Source: a virus. Taken from it: a stretch of 64,000 nt of DNA. Below are positions 21,008 to 41,605 of the stretch, one piece after another. The notes below the pieces were generated by a model. The model was given only the letters and a program-made list of their open reading frames with translations. It had not been told where the DNA came from and did no database searches. Position 1 is the first letter of the stretch; each line of letters opens with the position of its first letter. The DNA lies in the IMG/VR virus record IMGVR_UViG_3300023174_000123, positions 21,332 through 85,331 of that record; one strand, 5' to 3'. The position numbers and the translations under genes are program-made.

Positions 21008-21687
21008 CTCCTTTACCAATCTTTGTGGGCTACGATCCTAGAGAAGCTATAGCCTATCATGTCTGTGTTAACAGTATAATTCGGCATGCCAGCCAGCCGG
21101 TGGCTATCATGCCTGTGGCATTGAACTTGTTCCAGGACTATGAAGAAACACACGGTGACAACAGCAACCATTTTGTTTATACCCGATTCCTAGTGCCACA
21201 TCTCATGAGTTATAGCGATTGGGCTATATTCATTGACGGCGACATGGTGCTACGTGATGACATTGTCAAACTTTGGAGTTTGAGAGAGTATGACAAAGAT
21301 GTCATGGTAGTCAAACACGACTATAAAACACGCATGACAGAAAAATACATGGGGGCCAAAAACGAAGACTATCCCAGAAAGAATTGGTCAAGTGTAATAC
21401 TATGGAATTGTAGTAGCTGGCCCAATCGTAGGTTAACTCCAGAATTTGTGCAAAATCAACCCGGCAGTTACCTTCATAGATTTGCCTGGTTAGAAGATGC
21501 CCGCATCGGCGAATTACCCCGAGAATGGAACTGGTTGCCAGATGAGTATGGTGCTAATCCCGAGGCCAAGTTGTTGCACTATACCTTGGGCACTCCGTGT
21601 TTTCATGAGTTTGCAAACACGCCACAAGCCGAAGAATGGCACCAGGAAAGAATCTTTACTGAACATTGCCAACAACGTGAGATTTAG
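21004..21687 (+). CDS. GT-A glycosyltransferase (GT8-like)
   Basis: IFVGYDPRE, F.YTRF.VP, FIDGDM, YPRKNWSS, HYTLGTP. Confidence 0.8.
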   Translation: MTPLPIFVGYDPREAIAYHVCVNSIIRHASQPVAIMPVALNLFQDYEETHGDNSNHFVYTRFLVPHLMSYSDWAIFIDGDMVLRDDIVKLWSLREYDKDVMVVKHDYKTRMTEKYMGAKNEDYPRKNWSSVILWNCSSWPNRRLTPEFVQNQPGSYLHRFAWLEDARIGELPREWNWLPDEYGANPEAKLLHYTLGTPCFHEFANTPQAEEWHQERIFTEHCQQREI

Positions 21688-29612: not shown

Positions 29613-30142
29613 ATCATATAGTTTGCTACACCGGAGGAACCTGTGGAGATCTGATTGCGGCCATGATAGATTCCACCGATGTAGAAGTTAAAAATCGTGT
29701 GATAATGCACGCCGAACAAAGGCAACGGCTTAAAAAACCGCACACCTTTGCCAACGATCAACAAAAGACCGAATACCTTGACACTATATTCCAGACCTAT
29801 AAGAGCGTGCCCAGTCATGATTTGAACTATCACGTGAACAACAGGCATAAATTTATAGCAATCACTGTGCAAGATTTTGCAACCGCTGTGTGGGCAGCCG
29901 AACGATTCAAACTGGTGCATAGACCACATGTGTGGCAAGAAATGACTCGTGCCTGTGGAGCCGACACTGTGGAGGACTATGCACAAATCTTGATTGATTA
30001 TTCCCGCATGGTAGTGCAACATACTGATCAGGTGCTTGAATTAGAACGCATCGTCAAAGGGCATGCCGTGGATGATCTAAAACAATATGTAGACACTGAC
30101 CTTGATCAGGGTTTATACTTGAACTGGTTAAACAGACAATGA
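29609..30142 (+). CDS. Hypothetical protein, possible sulfotransferase/P-loop-like fold
   Basis: N-terminal IVCYTGGTCGDL loop, similar to the 41602 ORF. Confidence 0.45.
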   Translation: MNHIVCYTGGTCGDLIAAMIDSTDVEVKNRVIMHAEQRQRLKKPHTFANDQQKTEYLDTIFQTYKSVPSHDLNYHVNNRHKFIAITVQDFATAVWAAERFKLVHRPHVWQEMTRACGADTVEDYAQILIDYSRMVVQHTDQVLELERIVKGHAVDDLKQYVDTDLDQGLYLNWLNRQ

Positions 30143-31602
30143 GAACAGCAACTATTATCATACGCGACGAAGTCAATATCAAGATTGAAGGTCTTGAGTT
30201 AGATGCTCGTCGTAGTTGTGTCAATGCATTCAAATATGATGTGCCTTATGCACGGTATCTGCCTGCCGTGAGATTGGGTCGTTGGGACGGCAAGGTTTCG
30301 TATTTCCAACTAGGCGGTAGCACTTATGTGAACTTGTTGCCAGAAATCATACCCATATTAGAAAAGTTCAACTACGACATTGAAGTAGATGATCAGCGAG
30401 AATATTCCACCACTTTTGAATTCAAGCAAGTCACTGAAGACAGTTACAGCCATATAGCCTGGCCCAAAGGACATCCGGCCGCAGGTGAACCCATGAAACT
30501 GCGTGACTATCAGGTAGAGATCATCAACAACTTCTTGGCCAATCCACAGTGCCTGCAAGAGGTGGCCACAGGTGCTGGTAAGACTGTGATGACCGCGGCA
30601 CTCAGTGATGCTGTCACAGCCTATGGTCGTAGCATCGTGATCGTGCCCAACAAGAGCTTGGTCACGCAAACAGAAAAAGACTACATCAACATGGGACTGG
30701 ATGTGGGTGTGTACTTTGGCGATCGTAAAGAATGGGGGTGTCAGCACACTATTTGTACCTGGCAGAGCTTGAACGTGCTACTCAAAAACACAAAAAATGG
30801 CACCACCGAGGATGACTGCACCATAGGTGAGTTTATAGAAGGTGTGGCGTGCGTGATTGTGGACGAAGTGCATATGGCCAAGGCCGATGCACTGAAGACC
30901 TTGCTAACAGGAGTAATGAGTCGCATACCCATACGCTGGGGACTCACTGGAACCATACCCAAAGAAAAGTTTGAAAGCGTGGCGCTCTTGGTCAGTCTTG
31001 GTCCGGTAATCAGCAAGCTCAGTGCCAGTGAACTGCAAAGTCAAGGTGTCTTGGCACAGTGCCATGTGAACATCGTGCAGTTGGAAGATCATGCAGAGTT
31101 CTCAAACTATCAAAGCGAGCTCAAATACTTGTTGGAAGAACCCGACAGGCTGAAAACCATAGCTGACCTGGTGCGACAAGTCAATGCCACAGGCAATACC
31201 TTGGTCCTGGTAGATCGTATCGCCGCAGGCCAGGCTCTAGTAGAACAACTCAAGGATGCAGTATTTGTTAGCGGTGCAACCAAAGCAAAGGATAGACAAG
31301 ATGAATATGACGAAGTGGCTGTGGCAGACGGTAAAATCATCGTGGCCACTTATGGCGTTGCTGCTGTGGGTATCAATATACCTAGGATTTTTAACCTGGT
31401 GCTCATTGAACCAGGTAAGTCCTTTGTCCGTGTTATTCAAAGCATAGGACGTGGTATCCGCAAGGCCGAAGACAAGGATCATGTGCAGATCTGGGACGTG
31501 ACCAGTACCTGTAGATTTGCCAAACGGCATCTAACCAAACGCAAGACCTTTTACAAAGAAGCCAACTACCCATTCACACAGGAAAAGTTGCAGTGGAAGT
31601 AG
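30139..31602 (+). CDS. uvsW: SF2 DNA helicase UvsW
   Basis: WDG, LRDYQ, ATGAGKT, VDEVH, GLTGT, QSIGRGIR. Confidence 0.92.
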   Translation: MRTATIIIRDEVNIKIEGLELDARRSCVNAFKYDVPYARYLPAVRLGRWDGKVSYFQLGGSTYVNLLPEIIPILEKFNYDIEVDDQREYSTTFEFKQVTEDSYSHIAWPKGHPAAGEPMKLRDYQVEIINNFLANPQCLQEVATGAGKTVMTAALSDAVTAYGRSIVIVPNKSLVTQTEKDYINMGLDVGVYFGDRKEWGCQHTICTWQSLNVLLKNTKNGTTEDDCTIGEFIEGVACVIVDEVHMAKADALKTLLTGVMSRIPIRWGLTGTIPKEKFESVALLVSLGPVISKLSASELQSQGVLAQCHVNIVQLEDHAEFSNYQSELKYLLEEPDRLKTIADLVRQVNATGNTLVLVDRIAAGQALVEQLKDAVFVSGATKAKDRQDEYDEVAVADGKIIVATYGVAAVGINIPRIFNLVLIEPGKSFVRVIQSIGRGIRKAEDKDHVQIWDVTSTCRFAKRHLTKRKTFYKEANYPFTQEKLQWK

Positions 31603-31639: not shown

Positions 31640-32140
31640 ATGAGAATATTAACACTGGACAACGAACCATTTGACCTAGATCACTTGCCAGAAGAAGTGG
31701 ATGACATGAGATTTGCTATATTTGACAACAGCGATCCCAAAGATCCTGATTATCATTACATACCTTTGATCTTTCTAGAAAGCTTCACAGCGCCGGCCTT
31801 GGTTTTACGCATCGGTGAATATAGAGTCAAAATGCCCGTGGACTGGCAAATCCTGATCGGCGAGCCCGATCTTGGCGACTTGGAAGTCCTACCGTTGACA
31901 GCTATCAATGATCGCGGATTCAAGGCCTTCCAGTTTAATCCCTTGAGCAGTTTCAGACCCAGTTTTTTGGATGTAGAGATCATTGACGTGTATCAAGAGG
32001 TTACCTGGTATGCGCCCAAACTCAAGAACGGTCAGATGTTGTGTGTGCCTATAGGTGAAGGTCTCAAACCCGACTGCGTATATTTTGTCAAAGATATCAG
32101 CAGAAACTGTGAAGTAGTAAACTATAATCAGGCCTGGTAG
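31640..32140 (+). CDS. Conserved-looking hypothetical beta-rich protein
   Basis: 166-aa ORF with TATAAT at 31628-31633. Confidence 0.65.
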   Translation: MRILTLDNEPFDLDHLPEEVDDMRFAIFDNSDPKDPDYHYIPLIFLESFTAPALVLRIGEYRVKMPVDWQILIGEPDLGDLEVLPLTAINDRGFKAFQFNPLSSFRPSFLDVEIIDVYQEVTWYAPKLKNGQMLCVPIGEGLKPDCVYFVKDISRNCEVVNYNQAW

Positions 32141-32586
32141 TGGAAAAACTCAGTATACAAAATGAAATGTCCCAGTTTGATCGCAAGAATCGCAGATTCT
32201 ATGATGAACTGACCAACGAAGAAAAGAAAAAGTTTAGTAACTATCTCATGATACGCTGGGGCAGTTGTGTGCAAGGTTCAAGGGACCTACAAGAGTTTTA
32301 TTTGATCTCTACCAATGAACGCTTGAACAAGAGATTTTTTGACATCAACCGCCATCCTCGATTGCAGTGGCTCATAGCTACTACAGTGAGCCCTGGCATG
32401 GGCACTCATAGACATCAATGGATAGCTCCCAAGAAAAAAGAAGCAGGAGCCACGGCCATACGTAAGCAGTTGGCTGAACTATATACACATCTCAAAGATG
32501 ATGAACTGGACCTGTTGGCCAAGATTACCACAAAAAAAGACATAGACGAATATATAAAAGCCGCAGGGCAAGACACAAAAAAATGA
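32140..32586 (+). CDS. Probable clamp-loader small subunit (gp62-like)
   Basis: FSNYLMIRW.S...N...HP.LQW......W..PKK pattern resembles gp62; replication context. Confidence 0.45.
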   Translation: MEKLSIQNEMSQFDRKNRRFYDELTNEEKKKFSNYLMIRWGSCVQGSRDLQEFYLISTNERLNKRFFDINRHPRLQWLIATTVSPGMGTHRHQWIAPKKKEAGATAIRKQLAELYTHLKDDELDLLAKITTKKDIDEYIKAAGQDTKK

Positions 32587-33332
32587 AACAGTACAAAAAT
32601 TTACTAGTCTCAGGGTGCAGTTTTAGTCAAGATTTTTGGTTTAATGGTATAGGCGGCGAACCTCCTAGCGAAACATCGCCAGGCGATTGTGTGTATATCA
32701 CCGATCCTAAATTCTCAGTTGAGATGCCTAGAAGCTGGTCTGGATTCTTGGCAAAAAAATTAGAAGTTACCAGTTTTGTGAATGTTGCGGCAAGTGCCCA
32801 CGGAAACATATTGGTCGCACATTCTATTTTAGAATGTATAAACAGATTTTATTATACAGCGGAAGACACGTTAGTAGTGATTAATCTTTCTGAACCATGG
32901 CGGCTCGATTTATTTTGTGAATATGATCATCCAGAAGTTGATAAAAAATATATTCCATGGAAGCAATCTTTTATACCTTATTCTTATTTAGATGCCAATG
33001 GTAAAATCACATCAGAGCTCCGTAAAAATATTGGTCTTGAGCAGGTAGGAGTTATCACATCAAATTCTATAGATTTTTTATTTAATTTTTTACAAAACAA
33101 AAAAATAGATTTTTATTTTTTGTTAATGAGTGATTTTGATAACACTGTATTAAAACCGGTGATTGATAGATTCAGAGAGCATCAGATAGAACTGACACCA
33201 GGATCAAACATGATCTCGTTTGGACAACTCACAAAAACATACGTATCAGAATCTAACTGGCATCTAGGAGTCAAAGGTGCCAGCCTGGTCGCCGATCAAA
33301 TATATCGCCATATCAAAAGCAAACAAGAATGA
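32583..33332 (+). CDS. SGNH/GDSL-like hydrolase or acyltransferase
   Basis: SGCSFS block I, NVA..AHGN block II, C-terminal NWHLG..G. Confidence 0.6.
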   Translation: MKQYKNLLVSGCSFSQDFWFNGIGGEPPSETSPGDCVYITDPKFSVEMPRSWSGFLAKKLEVTSFVNVAASAHGNILVAHSILECINRFYYTAEDTLVVINLSEPWRLDLFCEYDHPEVDKKYIPWKQSFIPYSYLDANGKITSELRKNIGLEQVGVITSNSIDFLFNFLQNKKIDFYFLLMSDFDNTVLKPVIDRFREHQIELTPGSNMISFGQLTKTYVSESNWHLGVKGASLVADQIYRHIKSKQE

Positions 33333-34003
33333 AGTATACCTGTCAGTATTGTAAGAAGGACTTTATAAAGGAGAGTAGTCTTGCGGTGCACAGTTGCGAG
33401 CCGCGACGGCGTCGCATGGAAAAAGATGAAGCAGGTGTGCGATTAGGATTCCATGCTTATTTGAAGTTCTATGAGCTGACACAGGGTAGTGCAAAGTTAA
33501 AAACCCATGATGACTTTTGTGAAAGTCCTTACTATCGTGCCTTTGTAAAGTTTGGTCGCTACTGTGTGGACATTCGTGCTGTCAATCCGGCACGTTTTGT
33601 AGAATGGGTACTAAAACAAAACAAAAAGATTGATCACTGGTGTCGAGATACTATATATACCGAATACCTAATAGACTATTTGCGTATAGAAAATATCAAT
33701 GATGCTCTGGCCCGTGCCATGGAGTTTGGTATTGATTGGGCAGAGAAGTCCGGACATCCAGCAGAAGATTGCTTGCGTTATGGCAACACAAATGCCATGG
33801 TCTATGCGATAACTGCCGGTCGCATCAGTCCGTGGATCGTTTATAATTGTGAAAGTGGTCAAAAGTTTTTGAGCGAACTTGATGCCACACAGATTGCCAT
33901 GATATGGCCTTACATTGATTCAGAAGTGTGGATGAAAAAATTTGCAGACTATGTGGCAGATCAGGAATATGCTCGAAATATATTGACAGAGGCAGGTTGG
34001 TAA
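33329..34003 (+). CDS. Hypothetical protein with N-terminal zinc finger
   Basis: CQYCKKDF......VHSC. Confidence 0.7.
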   Translation: MKYTCQYCKKDFIKESSLAVHSCEPRRRRMEKDEAGVRLGFHAYLKFYELTQGSAKLKTHDDFCESPYYRAFVKFGRYCVDIRAVNPARFVEWVLKQNKKIDHWCRDTIYTEYLIDYLRIENINDALARAMEFGIDWAEKSGHPAEDCLRYGNTNAMVYAITAGRISPWIVYNCESGQKFLSELDATQIAMIWPYIDSEVWMKKFADYVADQEYARNILTEAGW

Positions 34004-35406
34004 TGGAAAAAAATAAAGAAATTGATCTCAAAGATCACCATGTGGTTATTGCTGGAATGCCTTTGGTTAATTCTATACATGCTCCATTGGCAGCACCTGC
34101 GGTACTGAAATCTTCTTTGAATCTATCTGGTATAAAAGCCACGGCCCTGGATCTTAACATTGAGGTTTTGTTAAAAATCAAATCTCATCCTGAATACAAC
34201 AATCTATTAAAATTTTTCAAGGAGCAACAAGCTGAGGACTGGGTAACTCAGGAAATTTCAAAAATATTATTTTATTGTGCTCATAGAATCATTGATTTAA
34301 AACCAACAGTGATTGCATTGAGTTTACTAACTTACGAATGTCAAAATTTTACACTTTGGCTGTGTGCTGTGTTACGTGATTTGTGCCCTGAAATCAAGAT
34401 AGTGGCTGGAGGGCCTGGTATCAAATATTCAGTATCGAATTTTGATGATACGACCTTCCGAGACACTGCAAAAGAATTAAATCTAATAGATGACTGGATC
34501 GCCGGCGACGGTGATCAATCTTTAATTGAATATGTAAAAGGTAATTGTACTTTTCCTGGAATAAACAATGATGTCTGGCAACCCATCGCCGATCTGGACT
34601 CTTTGCCTTATCCAGACTGGTCTGATTATAATTTTTATCTGTATTCTCAAAACTTTATGCCGATAGTAGACGCCAAAGGCTGTGTTAGAAATTGTGAATT
34701 TTGTGACGTGATTGAGTATTGGAAAAAATTTCAATCCAGAGATGCAGAATCAATTTTTGAAGAAATGTTATATCAAATGGAAAAATATAACATGAGAGAT
34801 TTTGACTTCAGGAGCAGCATTACCAATGGCAATCTGCGAGAGTTTAAAAAATTGTTAAAGTTAATGGACGACTACAACAAGGACAAATATAGGCCAGAGC
34901 AGATAAGTTGGAATGCCAGTTTTATTATACGACAACAAAGCCAACATACCGAAGAGATGTTTAGACAAATGGGCGCCACCCATGCTACCTTGAGCCTGGG
35001 CGTGGAAAGTATCGTGCCCGAAGTTCGAAAAAAACTAGGCAAAACATTTGAAAATTCTGACATAGATTATCATTTGCAAATGGCCGAAAAATATAATGTA
35101 AAAGTTATTTTAATGATTATAACCGGGTACCCTTCAGAAACTCTTCAAGATTATGAGTTTACCAAACAATGGTTTCGAGATAGAGCACACTATAAAAATG
35201 TTATTTCGAGATTATTTTTGTCTCCGGCAGAGATCATACCCGGAACTCAATTACACAAGAATATGGACAAACATAAAATTATTCCTATCAAAGAAAATAA
35301 GAAATGGCAGACTGAGACCATAACCATCGAAGAGAGAAAAAAATATCACAATGAATTGGTACATTTATGCTCAAAAGAACTAGGATTTAACATTGAAGTC
35401 TACTAA
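34003..35406 (+). CDS. B12-binding (class B) radical SAM enzyme
   Basis: P.A.AVLK, IVAGGP, GDGD, LP.PD, KGCVRNCEFC, GVES, GYPSET. Confidence 0.88.
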   Translation: MEKNKEIDLKDHHVVIAGMPLVNSIHAPLAAPAVLKSSLNLSGIKATALDLNIEVLLKIKSHPEYNNLLKFFKEQQAEDWVTQEISKILFYCAHRIIDLKPTVIALSLLTYECQNFTLWLCAVLRDLCPEIKIVAGGPGIKYSVSNFDDTTFRDTAKELNLIDDWIAGDGDQSLIEYVKGNCTFPGINNDVWQPIADLDSLPYPDWSDYNFYLYSQNFMPIVDAKGCVRNCEFCDVIEYWKKFQSRDAESIFEEMLYQMEKYNMRDFDFRSSITNGNLREFKKLLKLMDDYNKDKYRPEQISWNASFIIRQQSQHTEEMFRQMGATHATLSLGVESIVPEVRKKLGKTFENSDIDYHLQMAEKYNVKVILMIITGYPSETLQDYEFTKQWFRDRAHYKNVISRLFLSPAEIIPGTQLHKNMDKHKIIPIKENKKWQTETITIEERKKYHNELVHLCSKELGFNIEVY

Positions 35407-35785
35407 TATTAAATTACTGCTTGAATTCTCACATCCGGCGATTGATCTAAAAATTTTTGATAGGCATGGAAAGATATTGATTGATCAAACAAATAATCAA
35501 TCAATATCATTGATTAATTTTTGTATATCCATGCCCAATCAACTTACCATTGCGATCGATAATGTGTTACCTGGATACATTGTAAAGGTGTTAGAAATGA
35601 AAATAGGACCTATAAAATTATCTAATTCAATTCTTTCTCAAATTTTTTCATTTTACGATCAACAAGACAATCAAGTTACCACCTATGTTTGGCGATCAAA
35701 TGGAAAAGCAGTGGTTGATTTGTTTTCTGAAGATTGGATACAATATCATTTGCTGTATAGAAACAAAATACAAACTGACCAATAA
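35393..35785 (+). CDS. Hypothetical AT-rich protein
   Basis: 130-aa ORF overlapping the rSAM end. Confidence 0.5.
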   Translation: MKSTNIKLLLEFSHPAIDLKIFDRHGKILIDQTNNQSISLINFCISMPNQLTIAIDNVLPGYIVKVLEMKIGPIKLSNSILSQIFSFYDQQDNQVTTYVWRSNGKAVVDLFSEDWIQYHLLYRNKIQTDQ

Positions 35786-35793
35786 AAATAATC

Positions 35794-36357
35794 ATGAGCG
35801 CAGACATCGATATTGATCTTGCAGACAGAGATCAGTTGTTGAAATTAATCCAGGCCGTTCCGGCACGACAATCAAATCAAGGACAGGTGCGTCGCCACAA
35901 CAGTGGTGTATATGTCACTGACATTCCCTACGATCCAATCAATGCTTGTGCAACTATTGACTATGAACAAGCAGAAAAACTGGGCTATTTTAAAATTGAT
36001 CTATTGAATATGTCGGTGTATCAATTAATACAAAGTCCAGAACACTACCAAGAGATACTGACCAAAGAGGCGCCTTGGACAAGATTGTGGACCGACGCAG
36101 ACTGGGCCAGCCAGTTAGTTCATGTAGGCAATTACCCAAACTTACTACAGTCAATGAAACCCGACAACATCCCCAGGATGGCAGCTTTTATCAGTATCAT
36201 ACGACCTGGCAAAGCACACTTGCAAAATCGTCCCTGGGACCAAGTATTTGAGTCGGTTTGGGATGGGGATGACAGCCGTGGATTTGTGTTCAAGAAATCG
36301 CATGCAATTTCTTATGCAGCCTTGGTGGCCTTGCACATGAACTTATTAAACACATGA
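35794..36357 (+). CDS. Miniature DnaE (C-family polymerase alpha)-like protein, 187 aa
   Basis: DIDID, HNSGVYV, GYFKIDLL, IIRPG, FKKSHAISYA in DnaE order. Confidence 0.8.
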   Translation: MSADIDIDLADRDQLLKLIQAVPARQSNQGQVRRHNSGVYVTDIPYDPINACATIDYEQAEKLGYFKIDLLNMSVYQLIQSPEHYQEILTKEAPWTRLWTDADWASQLVHVGNYPNLLQSMKPDNIPRMAAFISIIRPGKAHLQNRPWDQVFESVWDGDDSRGFVFKKSHAISYAALVALHMNLLNT

Positions 36358-37043
36358 CCATATTATACAGCAATGGATGTAGTTATACTGCTAACTATAA
36401 TATTGAGAGATCAGAAAGATATCCTATATTGATAGCCAAACATTTTAAGTGGATGGTTCAGGATAAAGCTATTCCTGGAAATTGTAATAGCAAAATCATT
36501 CGTTCTGCAATGAGAGATTGCGTTAGCTTGCTGAAACAAGAAAAACCGATCGTGGCCATGATCCAATTGACTCATCAAGAACGATTTGAATATGCGGGTA
36601 AGCCTACCAAAGAGAATGCGTGGAAGTACGGATTGTTGCATGACCAGGTAGAAAACATAGACAAACAAATCTTTGATCAATTTGAATCTATAAATCCAAT
36701 GGACGAAAAACATTGGCCCAAAGAGATTGTTCAGTATGCCAAACAACATTTAATTTTGCAAAAAATTGATGCTTTGAATACTAATTTATTTCATAGTATC
36801 ATTGGCCTGGCTTCTTTTTTTAGAACTAACAACATAAAATATTTGATCTATGCCGGTCCATCTTTTTATAATCCAGAAATAGACAATGATCCTTTTTATA
36901 GATATCTGCTAAACGACAAAAATGTAATAGATTTAAATAATTTTAACATGTTGTCCATCACCGGGTTATCAAAACATCCAGATTCCAGTGGCATGAAAAA
37001 GATAGCTGATTATTTTATTAATCTACTCGACGAACCAAAGTAA
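36354..37043 (+). CDS. SGNH/GDSL-like protein
   Basis: SNGCSYT, A.PGNCN, IQLT..ER.E, KHPD..G. Confidence 0.65.
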   Translation: MTILYSNGCSYTANYNIERSERYPILIAKHFKWMVQDKAIPGNCNSKIIRSAMRDCVSLLKQEKPIVAMIQLTHQERFEYAGKPTKENAWKYGLLHDQVENIDKQIFDQFESINPMDEKHWPKEIVQYAKQHLILQKIDALNTNLFHSIIGLASFFRTNNIKYLIYAGPSFYNPEIDNDPFYRYLLNDKNVIDLNNFNMLSITGLSKHPDSSGMKKIADYFINLLDEPK

Positions 37044-37395
37044 TACTTTTTCTTTTGCTTTTTTTCCTACCGATCTCGCCGAGACTGCATATGGGTCCAT
37101 GCACGACTTCTAGATCTTTGTTGGTAAATGTGCGTAGATAAGGACGGAAAACGTCCCACTCACCTTTTAAGAATATGTTTATGGGCACAGTTCTGTTGCT
37201 TTCCCACCACCAAATGTTGGCCAGTTCTAGGAACCGGCGTTTGATTTCTATGTCTTGTATGGCGCCAAAATCGTAGATGGTAGTAATGGCATCGTCTTGA
37301 TTTTGTATGATACCCACGTATTCCGTGGTGGCATACACACACAAGGTAATAAACGGATACTTTTCCGCTAATTGGGCAAAAAAATCAGTGCTCAT
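37018..37395 (-). CDS. Hypothetical protein
   Basis: YVGIIQN..WWWESNR..PINIFLK; minus-strand TAAATA at 37406-37411. Confidence 0.7.
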   Translation of the reverse strand: MSTDFFAQLAEKYPFITLCVYATTEYVGIIQNQDDAITTIYDFGAIQDIEIKRRFLELANIWWWESNRTVPINIFLKGEWDVFRPYLRTFTNKDLEVVHGPICSLGEIGRKKSKRKSITLVRRVD

Positions 37396-37456: not shown

Positions 37457-38602
37457 ATGTATTCAACCCAAGTCTATATCTATCAGCAGATCACCAGAGT
37501 CTTGCTCATGGACACAGGTGCGGGCGAAACTTTTATCTATAGGTATGATCCTGTGTACGCCAAAGTCCTGACCATAAACAAAGGTGTTGATAATGTGCTC
37601 CTGTTTGAGTTTATCAACCAGCAAGAAAAACCTGTGAACATCACAGGTAGCACGTTCCTGTTCCGAGTGATCAGCACCGAGGGTGATGTTTTACTTTTAG
37701 AAAAACCCATGGTGATCTTGAATGCTCCCACTGGCCGCGCCAAAGTAACCTTGACCAGCGCAGAACTTTTAGAAGTCTTGGCACAACCAGCCAACTACAG
37801 CATACAACGCAGCAGTGGAAACTTGGTAGAAGCAGTGTTTGTGGATGCTCAGGCCGGAGCCCGTGCTCCTGTAAACATTGTAGACAGCATCTTGCCACAG
37901 TATGTGCCAAGTGCACCACTCACAATACCCACTATCAAACTCAGCGCCCAGGGTAGCCCAGATGGTATTGCCTGGACTCAATGGCCTTCCAATCCATATT
38001 ATTCTGGCAACCCCAACGGTGGAAATTACTACAACAGTTTTTTGAATACCGAATACTTCAGTAGTTTTATTGAACCCACCAAAGGCGTTACCACAGTGCA
38101 GATGACCTTGGTGGGTTACACAGGCACGATCAAAGCACAGGCCGCAGAAAACTATCAAAGCATATTCTACAACGTCACAGAGTCTACTACCTATTACGAC
38201 GAAACCAGAACCATATACATGAACATTGTGGGATGGCATCCTATAATTAGATTGTGCTTCAACAACAGCATTTTTGCCGTGCCAGATCAACCTGGCACTC
38301 CGGCACTGGCCACGGCCATTACAGAAAACGGTGTAGTCACTGCCATCAACGTGGTCAACGGTGGCAGCGGATATCTAGCACCGCCCAAGATCAACATCAT
38401 TGGCAGCGGGTCCGGCGCTACAGCAGAAGCTACCATCTCGGGCGGTGTGGTCACAGGGATTACAGTGACCAATGGCGGAAGTGGTTATTGGTATCTACCA
38501 AATGCCGGCTCAACCAGCGTGGTCAGTCCTGCTCCTCCGTCGACATCCAGCGCTGCTGTGGTAATCAGCACCGGTTATGTGGTTGATCTATTGTATAGAT
38601 AA
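37457..38602 (+). CDS. Baseplate/virion structural protein
   Basis: I.V.NGGSGY repeats typical of T4-like baseplate-wedge proteins; TAAATA at 37445-37450. Confidence 0.65.
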   Translation: MYSTQVYIYQQITRVLLMDTGAGETFIYRYDPVYAKVLTINKGVDNVLLFEFINQQEKPVNITGSTFLFRVISTEGDVLLLEKPMVILNAPTGRAKVTLTSAELLEVLAQPANYSIQRSSGNLVEAVFVDAQAGARAPVNIVDSILPQYVPSAPLTIPTIKLSAQGSPDGIAWTQWPSNPYYSGNPNGGNYYNSFLNTEYFSSFIEPTKGVTTVQMTLVGYTGTIKAQAAENYQSIFYNVTESTTYYDETRTIYMNIVGWHPIIRLCFNNSIFAVPDQPGTPALATAITENGVVTAINVVNGGSGYLAPPKINIIGSGSGATAEATISGGVVTGITVTNGGSGYWYLPNAGSTSVVSPAPPSTSSAAVVISTGYVVDLLYR

Positions 38603-38649: not shown

Positions 38650-39633
38650 ATGATTGATGTGATCTCTTACCTGCCCGCACGACGCAAGCCCAGTGCTTCG
38701 GGTTGGATCAGTTTCAATGCACCCTGCTGTGAGCACATGGGAGAAAGTCGAGATCGACGTAGTCGTGGCGGTATCAAAACAAGCGATGCGGGCTGGAGCT
38801 ATCATTGTTTCAATTGTGGCTACACTGCCAGCTTTATCATGGGACGCAATCTCAGTTTCAAGGCTCGTAAACTGCTGTCATGGTTGGGTGTACCTCCAGA
38901 AGAAGTAGAACGCATCAACTTGGAAAGTCTCCGACACAAAAACATGGAAGGCCTGCTGACTGATCGTCAACGTGTTAGCAATACCCTGCAGGGCATAGAG
39001 TTTGAAGAACGTGACCTGCCACCTGCGGCAGAACTGGTCACCACAGTGCATCCTACGCATTGGCAGTATCTGCGTGCTCGTGGTGTGCCAGCAGACTACC
39101 CTGTGATGACAGTGCTGCAGACTGACAAGGTACACTGGACCCGACCACAGGTCATTGTACCTTTTACCTATGACAATCGTGTGGTAGGCTACAGTTGCCG
39201 TATGCTGGACAATCGTCAGCCCAAGTATATCCATGACACACAGCCGGGCTATGTGTTTGGCACAGACTTGCAAGGTGCGGCGTGGCGTTATGCCCTAGTG
39301 GTAGAAGGTGTGTTTGATGCACTCAGCATAGGTGGCCTGGCAGTGTTGCATGCCGAAATCAATGATGCACAGGCCCGACTCATACGCAGTCTTGATAGAG
39401 AAGTCATAGTGGTGCCTGATCAGGACCTGGCCGGAATGAAACTGGTGGATCGTGCTCTAGAGCTAGGGTGGAGTGTAAGCATGCCCGAGTGGCCCGCTGA
39501 TGTAAAAGATGTCAACGATGCTGTGATTCGTTGGGGCAGATTGGCCACTGTGATAACTATCTTGCAGGCACGGGAAACCAGCCGAATCAAAATAGAACTA
39601 AGAAAAAAATGGTTATTAAAACAACTGAACTAA
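38650..39633 (+). CDS. DNA primase, gp61-like
   Basis: Zn motif CC..HCFNC, PKY, TOPRIM VEGVFD, PDQD.AG, KDVND. Confidence 0.9.
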   Translation: MIDVISYLPARRKPSASGWISFNAPCCEHMGESRDRRSRGGIKTSDAGWSYHCFNCGYTASFIMGRNLSFKARKLLSWLGVPPEEVERINLESLRHKNMEGLLTDRQRVSNTLQGIEFEERDLPPAAELVTTVHPTHWQYLRARGVPADYPVMTVLQTDKVHWTRPQVIVPFTYDNRVVGYSCRMLDNRQPKYIHDTQPGYVFGTDLQGAAWRYALVVEGVFDALSIGGLAVLHAEINDAQARLIRSLDREVIVVPDQDLAGMKLVDRALELGWSVSMPEWPADVKDVNDAVIRWGRLATVITILQARETSRIKIELRKKWLLKQLN

Positions 39634-40196
39634 AAAATATCGTTGTTGTTGGAGATAGTTTTTCTGCAGATACTGGCAATGACATCAGCTGGGTAGCTAA
39701 ATTATCTAATAACTATAATGTAAAAAATTTTAGTCAACGAGGAATTTCAGAATACCGACTTTATAATATTATACTAAAGAACATAGAGGAAATTTCCAAG
39801 GCCGACACAATAATTATTTTTCATACCAATCCCGATCGTGTATTTGTGCCAAACCACGTGCAGTTTCAATCTCGACAATTACAAACACACCCTCACATGG
39901 ATATGGTAGCGAACGATGCGTTAAATGATAAATGTTGGAAAAAGATCGCCGATTATTACTACAGATATTTTTATGATCAAGGACAACAAAATTGCATTTA
40001 TGAACTGTTGGTTGAAAAAATTGATAGGTTGGTAAAAATACAGAAAATCCATTGTTCTGGGTTCAACGTAGCATGTGAATCTATTACAATGAACTTGTTT
40101 TATCAGACAAAAATAGATCATCCTGGAACAATTAATCATTTTAATTCTGCCGGCAATCAATTTGTTTACAATTATTTAGAAAGTATAATTTGTTAA
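39609..40196 (+). CDS. SGNH/GDSL-like protein
   Basis: VGDSFS, NFSQRG.S, NHF..AGN. Confidence 0.65.
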   Translation: MVIKTTELKNIVVVGDSFSADTGNDISWVAKLSNNYNVKNFSQRGISEYRLYNIILKNIEEISKADTIIIFHTNPDRVFVPNHVQFQSRQLQTHPHMDMVANDALNDKCWKKIADYYYRYFYDQGQQNCIYELLVEKIDRLVKIQKIHCSGFNVACESITMNLFYQTKIDHPGTINHFNSAGNQFVYNYLESIIC

Positions 40197-41605
40197 AAGA
40201 CTACGGACTTGAAGTCCAACGCCTATTCTTAGAAATGATGTTGCAAGACGCAGAGAGTTATGTGCGTGTGCAGAACATCTACAATCCAGAAAACTTTGAT
40301 CGTAGTCTGAGACCTGCGGCTGAGTTTATCGCCCGGCACAGTGACGATCACAAGACCCTGCCCACGGCAGACCAGATACGAGCCAGCACTGGTGTTGCAC
40401 TCAATCATATTCCAGATCTCAACGAAGGACACTTTGAGTGGTTCATGACCGAGTTTGAAGGATTTACTAGACGTCAAGAATTAGAACGTGCCATTCTTAA
40501 AAGTGCAGACTTGTTGGAAAAGGGCGAGTATGATCCTGTGGAGAAACTGATCAAAGATGCTGTACAGATATCGTTGACCAAAGACATGGGCACAGACTAC
40601 TGGTCCGATCCCAAAACACGTATCAACAAGTATTTTAATTCAGGCGGACAAGTGTCAACAGGTTGGCCACAGATGGACAAGATCTTGTATGGTGGCTTTA
40701 GCCGTGGCGAACTCAACATTTTTGCAGGCGGATCAGGATCTGGAAAGAGCTTGGTCATGATGAACATAGCACTCAGTTGGTTGCAGGCAGGACTGTCGGG
40801 TGTGTATATCAGTTTAGAACTCAGTGAAGAACTATGTGCCCTGAGAACTGATGCCATGTTGGCCGGCATGAGCACCAAAGAGATACGCAAGGACATAGAT
40901 CAGACTGAACTCAAGGTCAAGCTTGTGAGCAAGAAAGCCGGACAGTATCGTATCAAAGCTCTGCCAGCACAAAGCAACATCAATGACATCCGTAGTTACA
41001 TCAAAGAAGTGCAAGTGCAAACAGGATTGAAAGTGGATTTTGTCATGTGTGATTATTTAGACTTGCTGATGCCTGTGAGTGCCAAAGTCAGCCCCAATGA
41101 CTTGTTTGTCAAAGACAAGTATGTGAGTGAGGAACTACGTAACTTGGCCAAAGAACTCAACGTGTTATTTGTGACAGCCAGTCAGTTGAATCGTAGTGCC
41201 GTGGAGGAAATTGAATTTGATCACAGTCATATCTCGGGCGGTATTTCAAAGATCAATACAGCGGATAATGTGTTTGGTATCTTTACAAGTCGTGCCATGC
41301 GTGAACGCGGCAAGTATCAAATACAATGTATGAAGAGCCGTAGTAGTACAGGTGTAGGACAAAAGATTGACTTGGATTATAACATAGAAACCATGCGTAT
41401 CACTGATCCAGGTGAAGATGCTAGTCCTGTAAATTCTTTCAAAAAGCCAGATATTTTGAGCAGTATCCGTACACAGAGTCGTGCCTTGCCGTCGGCAACA
41501 GACAATGAACAAGAATCGGACTCAATAGAAAACACAGGAAAAATCACAGCAGATGTTCAGAGTGCCAAACTCAAACAATTATTAGGAAAAATCAAAACCA
41601 CATGA
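40190..41605 (+). CDS. Replicative DnaB-family helicase, gp41-like
   Basis: GGSGSGKS, SLEL, DYLDL, TASQLNR, KSR. Confidence 0.92.
   Translation: MLKDYGLEVQRLFLEMMLQDAESYVRVQNIYNPENFDRSLRPAAEFIARHSDDHKTLPTADQIRASTGVALNHIPDLNEGHFEWFMTEFEGFTRRQELERAILKSADLLEKGEYDPVEKLIKDAVQISLTKDMGTDYWSDPKTRINKYFNSGGQVSTGWPQMDKILYGGFSRGELNIFAGGSGSGKSLVMMNIALSWLQAGLSGVYISLELSEELCALRTDAMLAGMSTKEIRKDIDQTELKVKLVSKKAGQYRIKALPAQSNINDIRSYIKEVQVQTGLKVDFVMCDYLDLLMPVSAKVSPNDLFVKDKYVSEELRNLAKELNVLFVTASQLNRSAVEEIEFDHSHISGGISKINTADNVFGIFTSRAMRERGKYQIQCMKSRSSTGVGQKIDLDYNIETMRITDPGEDASPVNSFKKPDILSSIRTQSRALPSATDNEQESDSIENTGKITADVQSAKLKQLLGKIKTT

Follow-up and report, generated by a model that had tools for sequence, protein, structure and literature searches.

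A small DnaE-like protein of an uncultured jumbo phage as the probable C-terminal half of a split, minimal DNA polymerase III alpha subunit

C-family DNA polymerases are the replicases of all bacteria and are known only as multi-domain proteins of ~900-1,450 residues, PolC reaching ~1,400 residues with an inserted exonuclease and other domains. In cyanobacteria, dnaE-n and dnaE-c lie at distant loci, and the two halves are ligated by split-intein trans-splicing into a full-length DnaE. In nucleotidyltransferases of the Pol-beta fold, the nucleotide-binding G-S loop and a strand come before the strand bearing the DxD motif. This position of the G-S loop is also stated in a paper by Iyer, Anantharaman, Krishnan, Burroughs and Aravind (2021, Viruses 13:63, PMC7824862), which describes the closest known system: in group 2.2 jumbo phages, a minimal DNA polymerase III alpha subunit (Pol III alpha) is split in two. 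According to the same text, distant genes encode an N-terminal, nucleoside triphosphate (NTP)-binding protein and a C-terminal, Mg2+- and template-binding protein; a family-B polymerase is found alongside, and no other Pol III alpha domains are present. It was proposed that the split enzyme may cooperate with the family-B enzyme in one-strand synthesis or repair, and that the module models an ancestral form. The present analysis concerns a 187-residue protein, hereafter piece B, encoded in a 64,000-nucleotide stretch of viral DNA (the window, positions 21,332 to 85,331 of IMG/VR record IMGVR_UViG_3300023174_000123). Piece B is very probably the C-terminal unit of a two-protein miniature C-family DNA polymerase of a large jumbo-phage clade, the other unit being termed piece A.

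A first-pass annotation, made from the letters of the window, had read five DnaE-like motifs in one open reading frame (ORF). They are present in the translation in the order given there, as A3-DIDID-8, R34-HNSGVYV-41, G64-YFKIDLL-71, S134-IIRPGK-140 and F164-VFKKSHAISYA-175. Pfam and NCBIfam assign no family to piece B, and a single-sequence phmmer search of the PDB returns chance matches only (E 0.7-0.9); the link to Pol III alpha therefore rests on a family profile and on fold comparison. The profile of 81 members, run against 177,635 distinct PDB sequences, matches only Pol III alpha (9 sequences, E 5.3e-6 to 8.5e-5). In the profile alignment, the K-x-D strand falls on E. coli K553/D555, while IRP and FKKSH correspond to 638-640 and 756-760, respectively. 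The predicted structure of piece B, which is confident when the protein is folded alone, aligns over its whole length with E. coli alpha 399-777, Taq alpha 460-834 and PolC 970-1292. Furthermore, PHROG 11778 ("DNA polymerase", a profile of 197 positions) matches piece B end to end (E 7.4e-51), and residues 50-81 also touch a 1,190-position polymerase PHROG. The fingers profile PF17657 gives a sub-threshold match at the place of RPGK in the piece B of a related genome, G001 (see below), and in the homologue P0130. The resemblance of the motifs to those of Pol III alpha is not due to chance, and the annotation was right to call the protein a C-family (DnaE-type) derivative. Its putative equation of RHNSGVYV with the KHAGGVV motif of DnaE fits the structural alignment, and H35 and G38 are kept in at least 90% of the family. 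The DxDxD repeat lets alignments slip by two residues, so that the counterparts of E. coli D401/D403 among D4/D6/D8 are ambiguous.

Piece B carries the DxD motif and the third acidic residue on palm strands of the Pol-beta fold, as well as the RPG and KSH blocks of the C-family fingers. It differs strongly from the cellular enzymes in sequence and in size. The phage pieces are 15-21% identical to bacterial Pol III alpha/DnaE of known structure (E. coli 2hnh; Thermus aquaticus 3e0d/2hpi/4iqj; M. tuberculosis 5lew/7pu7) and the phage protein is 11% identical to Firmicutes PolC (Geobacillus kaustophilus 3f2b/3f2c), structure-comparison rows within 1 Z unit counting as tied, so that the protein cannot be said to stand closer to PolC than to DnaE. 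Compared with E. coli alpha, about 190 of the ~380 residues of the aligned span are missing. Between D6 and D69 lie 62 residues, versus about 150 between the E. coli counterparts, which suggests that the thumb has been lost. The aligned range and the length of 187 residues agree with the annotated absence of the PHP, thumb, HhH, OB and clamp-binding regions; the tau-binding part is missing too. The G-S nucleotide-binding loop and the palm elements that precede it are not on the piece B polypeptide, which starts M-S-A and continues as the DxD strand, with only two residues before that strand. In relatives, these elements are found on a separate protein, so that the palm is shared between two polypeptides, unlike in bacterial DnaE. 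Since the NTP-binding half of the palm, with its G-S loop, is absent from the polypeptide, piece B alone is an incomplete C-family catalytic core.

Small size is a trait of the whole piece B family, the homologues being 186-209 residues long among the 120 matches listed. Using tblastn, piece B is found in 96 phage records, all below 60% identity; in 95 of these, the match spans at least 80% of the protein. Their hosts include Escherichia (34 records), Pseudomonas (11) and Klebsiella (11), with Erwinia, Salmonella, Xanthomonas, Yersinia and Agrobacterium among others. The records listed are jumbo phages, e.g., PA5oct, PBECO4, G17, CBB and Atu_ph07; the nearest isolate copy, that of PA5oct, is 42% identical to the piece B of the window. 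In a metagenomic collection of 5.8 billion proteins, at least 7,959 clusters match at E<=1e-3 (8,000 scored), and an exhaustive search of its 50%-identity representatives yields 364 matches at E<=1e-3 and 219 at E<=1e-10. The alignment of the family (A1) holds 81 rows at 28-63% identity, i.e., the window protein and 80 full-length representatives; these were drawn from 84 representatives of 175-220 residues, P0122, P0209, P0251 and P0269 being omitted for partial query coverage.

In this alignment, D4, D6, K67, D69 and P138 are invariant in 81 of 81 rows, and D8, H35, G38, P45, W95, R137, K140, K167, H170 and A175 are kept in at least 90%. In a set of close copies, comprising the window copy and 80 related viral loci, D4, D6 and D8 are unchanged and the reading frame is intact throughout (81 of 81). 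The catalytic aspartates are thus kept, as first noted. With the window copy alone as reference, synonymous sites are saturated in 68 of 80 pairs, the other 12 giving ratios of nonsynonymous to synonymous substitution rates (dN/dS) of 0.026-0.082; because of this saturation, all pairs were used instead. The 105 of 3,240 pairs with 0.05<dS<1.5 have a median dN/dS of 0.084 and a range of 0.04-0.226. Piece B is under purifying selection, which excludes decay and bears out the first-pass annotation on this point.

The earlier suggestion that piece B is one subunit of a split enzyme is also supported, the G-S half being carried by a separate protein of ~170 residues in PA5oct and in the related genomes G001-G003. 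The complete PA5oct genome matches the Pol III alpha palm profile PF07733 at one place only, EST35_0288. The last 74 residues of this 169-residue protein cover profile positions 21-94 with 36.9 bits (cut-off 23.9), and its gene lies 44 kb from that of piece B, EST35_0220. In G001-G003, whose piece B is 79-83% identical to that of the window, a small PF07733 ORF is found 98-108 kb downstream of piece B in three of three cases. G001 is a 337-kb genome with terminal repeats, rated 100% complete, while G002 and G003 are rated 51% and 43% complete. The nearby proteins at 33329, 32140 or 37018 that had been put forward are therefore unsupported as partners; the likely partner is a PF07733 protein encoded 44-108 kb away in the relatives.

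Piece A of G001-G003 ends "...GVGRGSS...EFLR". The G-V-G-R-G-S-S block does not vary in any of the 73 aligned rows, and the EFLR end marks the point where an unsplit Pol III alpha would pass into the DxD strand, which places the split there. The alignment of piece A (A2) keeps 70 of the 120 listed proteins after thinning at 85% identity, and a further alignment (A3) combines 28 piece A rows with 81 piece B rows. All 120 listed matches carry PF07733, and many were named "DNA polymerase III alpha subunit" by the Joint Genome Institute. At least 8,000 metagenomic proteins, mostly of 170 residues, match piece A (8,000 of 8,000 scored). Residues 1-85 of piece A (genes at L088:1222-1731 and L090:1192-1701) lie outside the PF07733 match and include near-invariant positions, e.g., W74 and P77. 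In G001 (L090:2225-2620) and PA5oct (EST35_0290) alike, a Cpn10-like co-chaperonin gene lies two genes downstream of piece A, which thus has a conserved neighbourhood of its own, distinct from that of piece B.

Pieces A and B occur in nearly the same phages. Piece A is found in 99 phage records versus 96 for piece B, and the tallies by genus are almost alike (A/B: Escherichia 34/34, Pseudomonas 11/11, Salmonella 8/8, Erwinia 8/8, Klebsiella 10/11); the surplus records of piece A are weak partial matches, e.g., in four Clostridium phages. In GenBank, the two pieces bear labels as varied as "hypothetical protein", "DNA polymerase", "DNA polymerase III alpha" and, once, "putative membrane protein". 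A natural A-B fusion is also found, the 375-residue protein P0184. It has one PF07733 match (59.6 bits, profile positions 12-121), which crosses the junction into the DFDID motif, and it may be taken as a suggestive sign that the halves belong together. In structure comparison, the model of the fusion maps to E. coli alpha from ~271 onward, whereas that of piece B alone matches Pol III alpha only from 399 onward. Generic enzymes of the Pol-beta fold, i.e., the CCA-adding enzyme and Pol beta, are matched only when the N-terminal half is included.

Complex prediction with the piece A of G002 and the piece B of the window gives an interaction prediction score from aligned errors (ipSAE) of 0.91 in three of three runs, the best control reaching 0.07. 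The predicted assemblies have 153-159 contacts, with at least 96% contact agreement between runs and a predicted local distance difference test score (pLDDT) of 91 for the partner. The ipSAE mark that the pair passes is reached by 58 of 80 solved complexes and by 2 of 110 mismatched pairs. In the predicted complex, residues 131-144 of piece A (a strand and the G-S loop) would touch residues 3-10 of piece B, which form the DxD strand. A second predicted contact would join residues 69-76 of piece A to the loop 41-49 of piece B.

Several points weigh against assigning piece B to such a two-protein enzyme. The 85-kb record of the window is rated 25% complete and holds no piece A and no PF07733 match. 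Piece B lies ~57 kb into this record, and the expected place of piece A falls past its end. Because the record is such a fragment, the pairing in the phage of the window is extrapolated from the relatives with a piece B 79-83% identical. Piece A was found in none of four further related viral records (14-42% complete), its expected position being off the contig in each; like the absence from the fragment of the window, this is uninformative. The fusion P0184 is a singleton from one 2,415-bp contig, and its model has a pLDDT below 50 at residues 41-78 and 148-175, i.e., a poor N-terminal half that includes the counterpart of the piece A N-terminus. When longer, fused relatives of piece B were sought by word matching, none turned up among 675 candidates, which is weak evidence; P0184 itself was missed. 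The complex prediction used a piece A from a relative, not the cognate one, and the high score may reflect the likeness of the pair to a contiguous domain solved in the PDB rather than binding. Pfam does not recognize piece B. In the metatranscriptome run X11 (0.07 of sampled words), the sole clean piece, of 191 nucleotides with 0 differences, falls at 35091-35281 in a radical-SAM ORF; over piece B there is only a 35-nucleotide piece with 5 differences, from an unrelated contig, and no RNA of this run covers the ORF. In the literature searched, no paper on the split mini Pol III alpha other than that of Iyer et al. was found, and no biochemical report on it. Finally, the role proposed below is speculative, as it is read from the gene neighbourhood and the missing domains.

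From the two halves, we infer an assembled polymerase working as follows. Piece B would supply the DxD strand, the strand of the third aspartate with its adjacent lysine, and reduced fingers with the RPG and KSH motifs. Piece A would supply the preceding palm helices, a beta-strand and the G-R-G-S-S nucleotide-binding loop. The two would assemble non-covalently, the strand of piece A pairing with the DxD strand of piece B, to form one active site of the Pol-beta fold, equivalent to E. coli alpha ~271-777 without the thumb. Two metal ions would be held by the DxD aspartates and D69, and the triphosphate by the G-S loop of piece A together with K67 and fingers residues of piece B. Judging from the missing parts, neither proofreading nor clamp tethering would be expected, processivity would be low, and the enzyme would work beside a family-B replicase. 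Because the gene lies in a helicase-primase block, its likeliest role may be short-patch synthesis at the fork (primer extension or gap filling), or else a role in repair. A more specific proposal makes the pair a fork enzyme coupled to the neighbouring primase and helicase, a counterpart of eukaryotic Pol alpha that extends primers briefly before hand-off to the family-B polymerase. This is rather unlikely; if true, the replisome of these jumbo phages would combine two polymerases, one of bacterial and one of archaeo-eukaryotic type.

Among the alternatives to a split DNA polymerase, the one that survives best keeps the A-B pair but denies it templated DNA synthesis. The pair might instead act as a terminal transferase, as a synthase that needs no primer or is primed by a protein, or in making nucleotide signals or modifications. 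Protein-priming or template-independent activity, also listed in the first-pass annotation, finds no support. This alternative is improbable, since the RPG and KSH motifs of the fingers, specific to C-family polymerases, are kept in at least 90% of the family, and the gene stands among helicase and primase genes in both the phage of the window and PA5oct. Appreciably less probable is that the 187-residue protein alone constitutes a complete C-family nucleotidyltransferase, as the first-pass annotation had entertained in calling it an unusually small one. The three acidic residues and the K-x-D strand are indeed invariant on one polypeptide, and the piece B model folds confidently alone. However, an active site of the Pol-beta fold needs the G-S loop and its preceding strand, which are on piece A; the ORF begins two residues before the DxD strand, the model matches Pol III alpha only from 399 onward, the matches to the CCA-adding enzyme and Pol beta need the N-terminal half, and piece A co-occurs with piece B.

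There is next to no chance that piece B is what remains of a captured bacterial dnaE in decay, or that it serves as a structural subunit devoid of catalytic activity. Such an origin would account for a length below a fifth of that of bacterial DnaE and for the lack of a Pfam match. Against it stand the low median omega (0.084, no pair above 0.226), the 81 of 81 intact copies, the steady length of 186-209 residues among the matches listed and catalytic residues invariant across 28-63% identity. A near-identical copy also exists in a sequencing run of another study, where a 3,213-nucleotide contig spans 35000-37140 with 5 differences and no gaps. As for covalent joining of the halves by a split intein, which two dnaE pieces at distant loci recall from the cyanobacterial genes, it can virtually be discarded, because piece B starts M-S-A and the DxD strand with no space for a C-intein, piece A ends at the helix before that strand with no extra tail, and no intein or Hint family is found in either; unlike that of the cyanobacterial system, the product would still be a minimal enzyme.

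Other Pol III alpha parts were sought in the two complete genomes, G001 and PA5oct. Neither matches the PHP profile PF02811 or the HHH_6 profile PF14579, for which the controls were positive in 14 of 14 genomes. The fingers profile PF17657 finds only piece B, below threshold, and, in G001, a separate 557-residue DnaE-like gene. The separate gp43-like family-B polymerase that the first-pass annotation recommended looking for is found in the relatives PA5oct, G001 and G002 (i.e., in two of the G001-G003 records), while the fragmentary record of the window matches neither PolA nor PolB. It is a single frame of 889 residues in G001 and G002. In PA5oct, the match (217618-221395, L002-L004) extends over two frames of 825 and 379 residues, and this replicase may itself be split or interrupted. 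The 557-residue gene of G001 (L087:517-2190, minus strand) encodes a third C-family polymerase without a PHP domain, with full PF07733 (133 bits) and PF17657 fingers (54 bits) matches. Like the A-B pair, it is a shortened phage C-family polymerase with the GS, DxD, K-x-D and RP motifs. Unlike the pair, it is one polypeptide, and in G001 it coexists with both the split pair and the family-B polymerase. Neither PA5oct nor the 85-kb record of the window has this gene.

Set against the description of the group 2.2 system (PMC7824862), on which the correspondence with the proteins of that paper rests, every point described there is reproduced here from sequences, the NTP-binding unit and the family-B polymerase being found in relatives of the phage of the window. 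Piece B of the window corresponds to its C-terminal unit, being a small protein with Mg2+- and template-binding subdomains only, and Atu_ph07, named there as a group 2.2 phage, carries both pieces. The window copy shows no difference in kind; it comes from an uncultured, freshwater-type phage. Piece B thus adds a member to a kind of enzyme that had already been described computationally in 2021. Beyond the available text of that paper, the fused form, the exact split point, the folds, the assembly prediction, the selection figures and the metagenomic abundance are new here. The available text of a 2026 review (PMC13282480) does not contain "polymerase III", "DnaE", "Pol III", "family B" or "split", and that of the Sharanji paper (PMC11895373) has "DNA polymerase III DnaE" among its genes, without comment.

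At ~350 residues in two chains, and keeping no more than the active site and some of the fingers, such an enzyme would be smaller than any C-family polymerase known. By the metagenomic counts given above for each piece, the pair is very common in environmental jumbo phages, and it would lend itself to studying the contribution of the accessory domains. One may also ask why a phage that has a family-B replicase retains a bacterial-type polymerase besides. As suggested by Iyer et al. (PMC7824862), the module could be a surviving model of the ancestral C-family polymerase before domain accretion, and not a reduced copy.

The features of the replication block around piece B are collected in Table 1.

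Table 1. Features of the replication block and of the piece B gene (window coordinates)
Feature	Coordinates	Strand	Remarks
Superfamily 2 (UvsW/ResIII-like) helicase	30139..31602	+	Opens the block; ResIII 1.4e-18, DEAD, Helicase_C; PHROG 16; place as PA5oct EST35_0215
Small conserved ORF	31640-32140	+	One of PHROGs 11279/11758/11058, "unknown function"; order as PA5oct EST35_0217-0219
Small conserved ORF	32140-32586	+	One of PHROGs 11279/11758/11058, "unknown function"; order as PA5oct EST35_0217-0219
Small conserved ORF	33329-34003	+	One of PHROGs 11279/11758/11058, "unknown function"; virus-only C2H2 zinc-finger cluster; order as PA5oct EST35_0217-0219
Piece B, probable C-terminal (Mg2+- and template-binding) half of a split minimal Pol III alpha	35794..36357	+	187 residues, ATG start, TGA stop
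D4-I-D6-I-D8 codons, DxDxD metal-binding strand	35803..35817	+	D4/D6 in 81/81, D8 in at least 90% of the family
K67-I-D69 codons, strand with the third catalytic aspartate	35992..36000	+	Invariant in 81/81; E. coli K553/D555 in the profile alignment
R137-P138-G139-K140 codons, fingers motif	36202..36213	+	E. coli FRPG 638-641; P138 invariant, R137/K140 in at least 90%
F166-KKSHAISYA-175 codons, fingers motif	36289..36318	+	E. coli FNKSHSAAYA 756-765 (alignment 739-769); K167/H170/A175 in at least 90%
Small ORF after piece B	37018..37395	-	PHROG 11637, E 2.2e-33; PA5oct EST35_0221 on the same strand and in the same place
381-residue ORF, no Pfam family	37457-38602		Place of the PA5oct counterpart: "structural protein" confirmed by mass spectrometry
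Toprim primase	38650-39633	+	Pfam Toprim_2 4.6e-6; PA5oct "DNA primase subunit" in the same order
DnaB-like helicase	40190-41605	+	DnaB_C 4.3e-21; next ORF of PA5oct in the same order

The piece B gene is tightly packed, the preceding ORF ending 8 nucleotides before its ATG and its TGA overlapping the start codon of the ORF that follows. Upstream of its own ATG there is no evident Shine-Dalgarno sequence, and promoter-like sites (22 versus 21.1 expected) and terminator-like sites (3 versus 3.7 expected) are at chance level. The small neighbours at 31640, 32140, 33329 and 37018 were considered as missing parts of Pol III alpha and rejected, as searches of Pfam, NCBIfam and PHROG found no Pol III alpha profile or named family in them. 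A gene for a virion protein is located within the replication block, and this is conserved across the phage of the window and the distant PA5oct.

The order of genes is the same in PA5oct, minus four ORFs that interrupt it in the window, at 32583-33332, 33928-35406, 35393-35785 and 36354-37043. The second of these encodes a 492-residue radical-SAM protein with a weak B12-binding match. In runs X2 and X3, contigs from diverged relatives pass directly from about 36341 to about 37081 and thus are without the 36354-37043 ORF.

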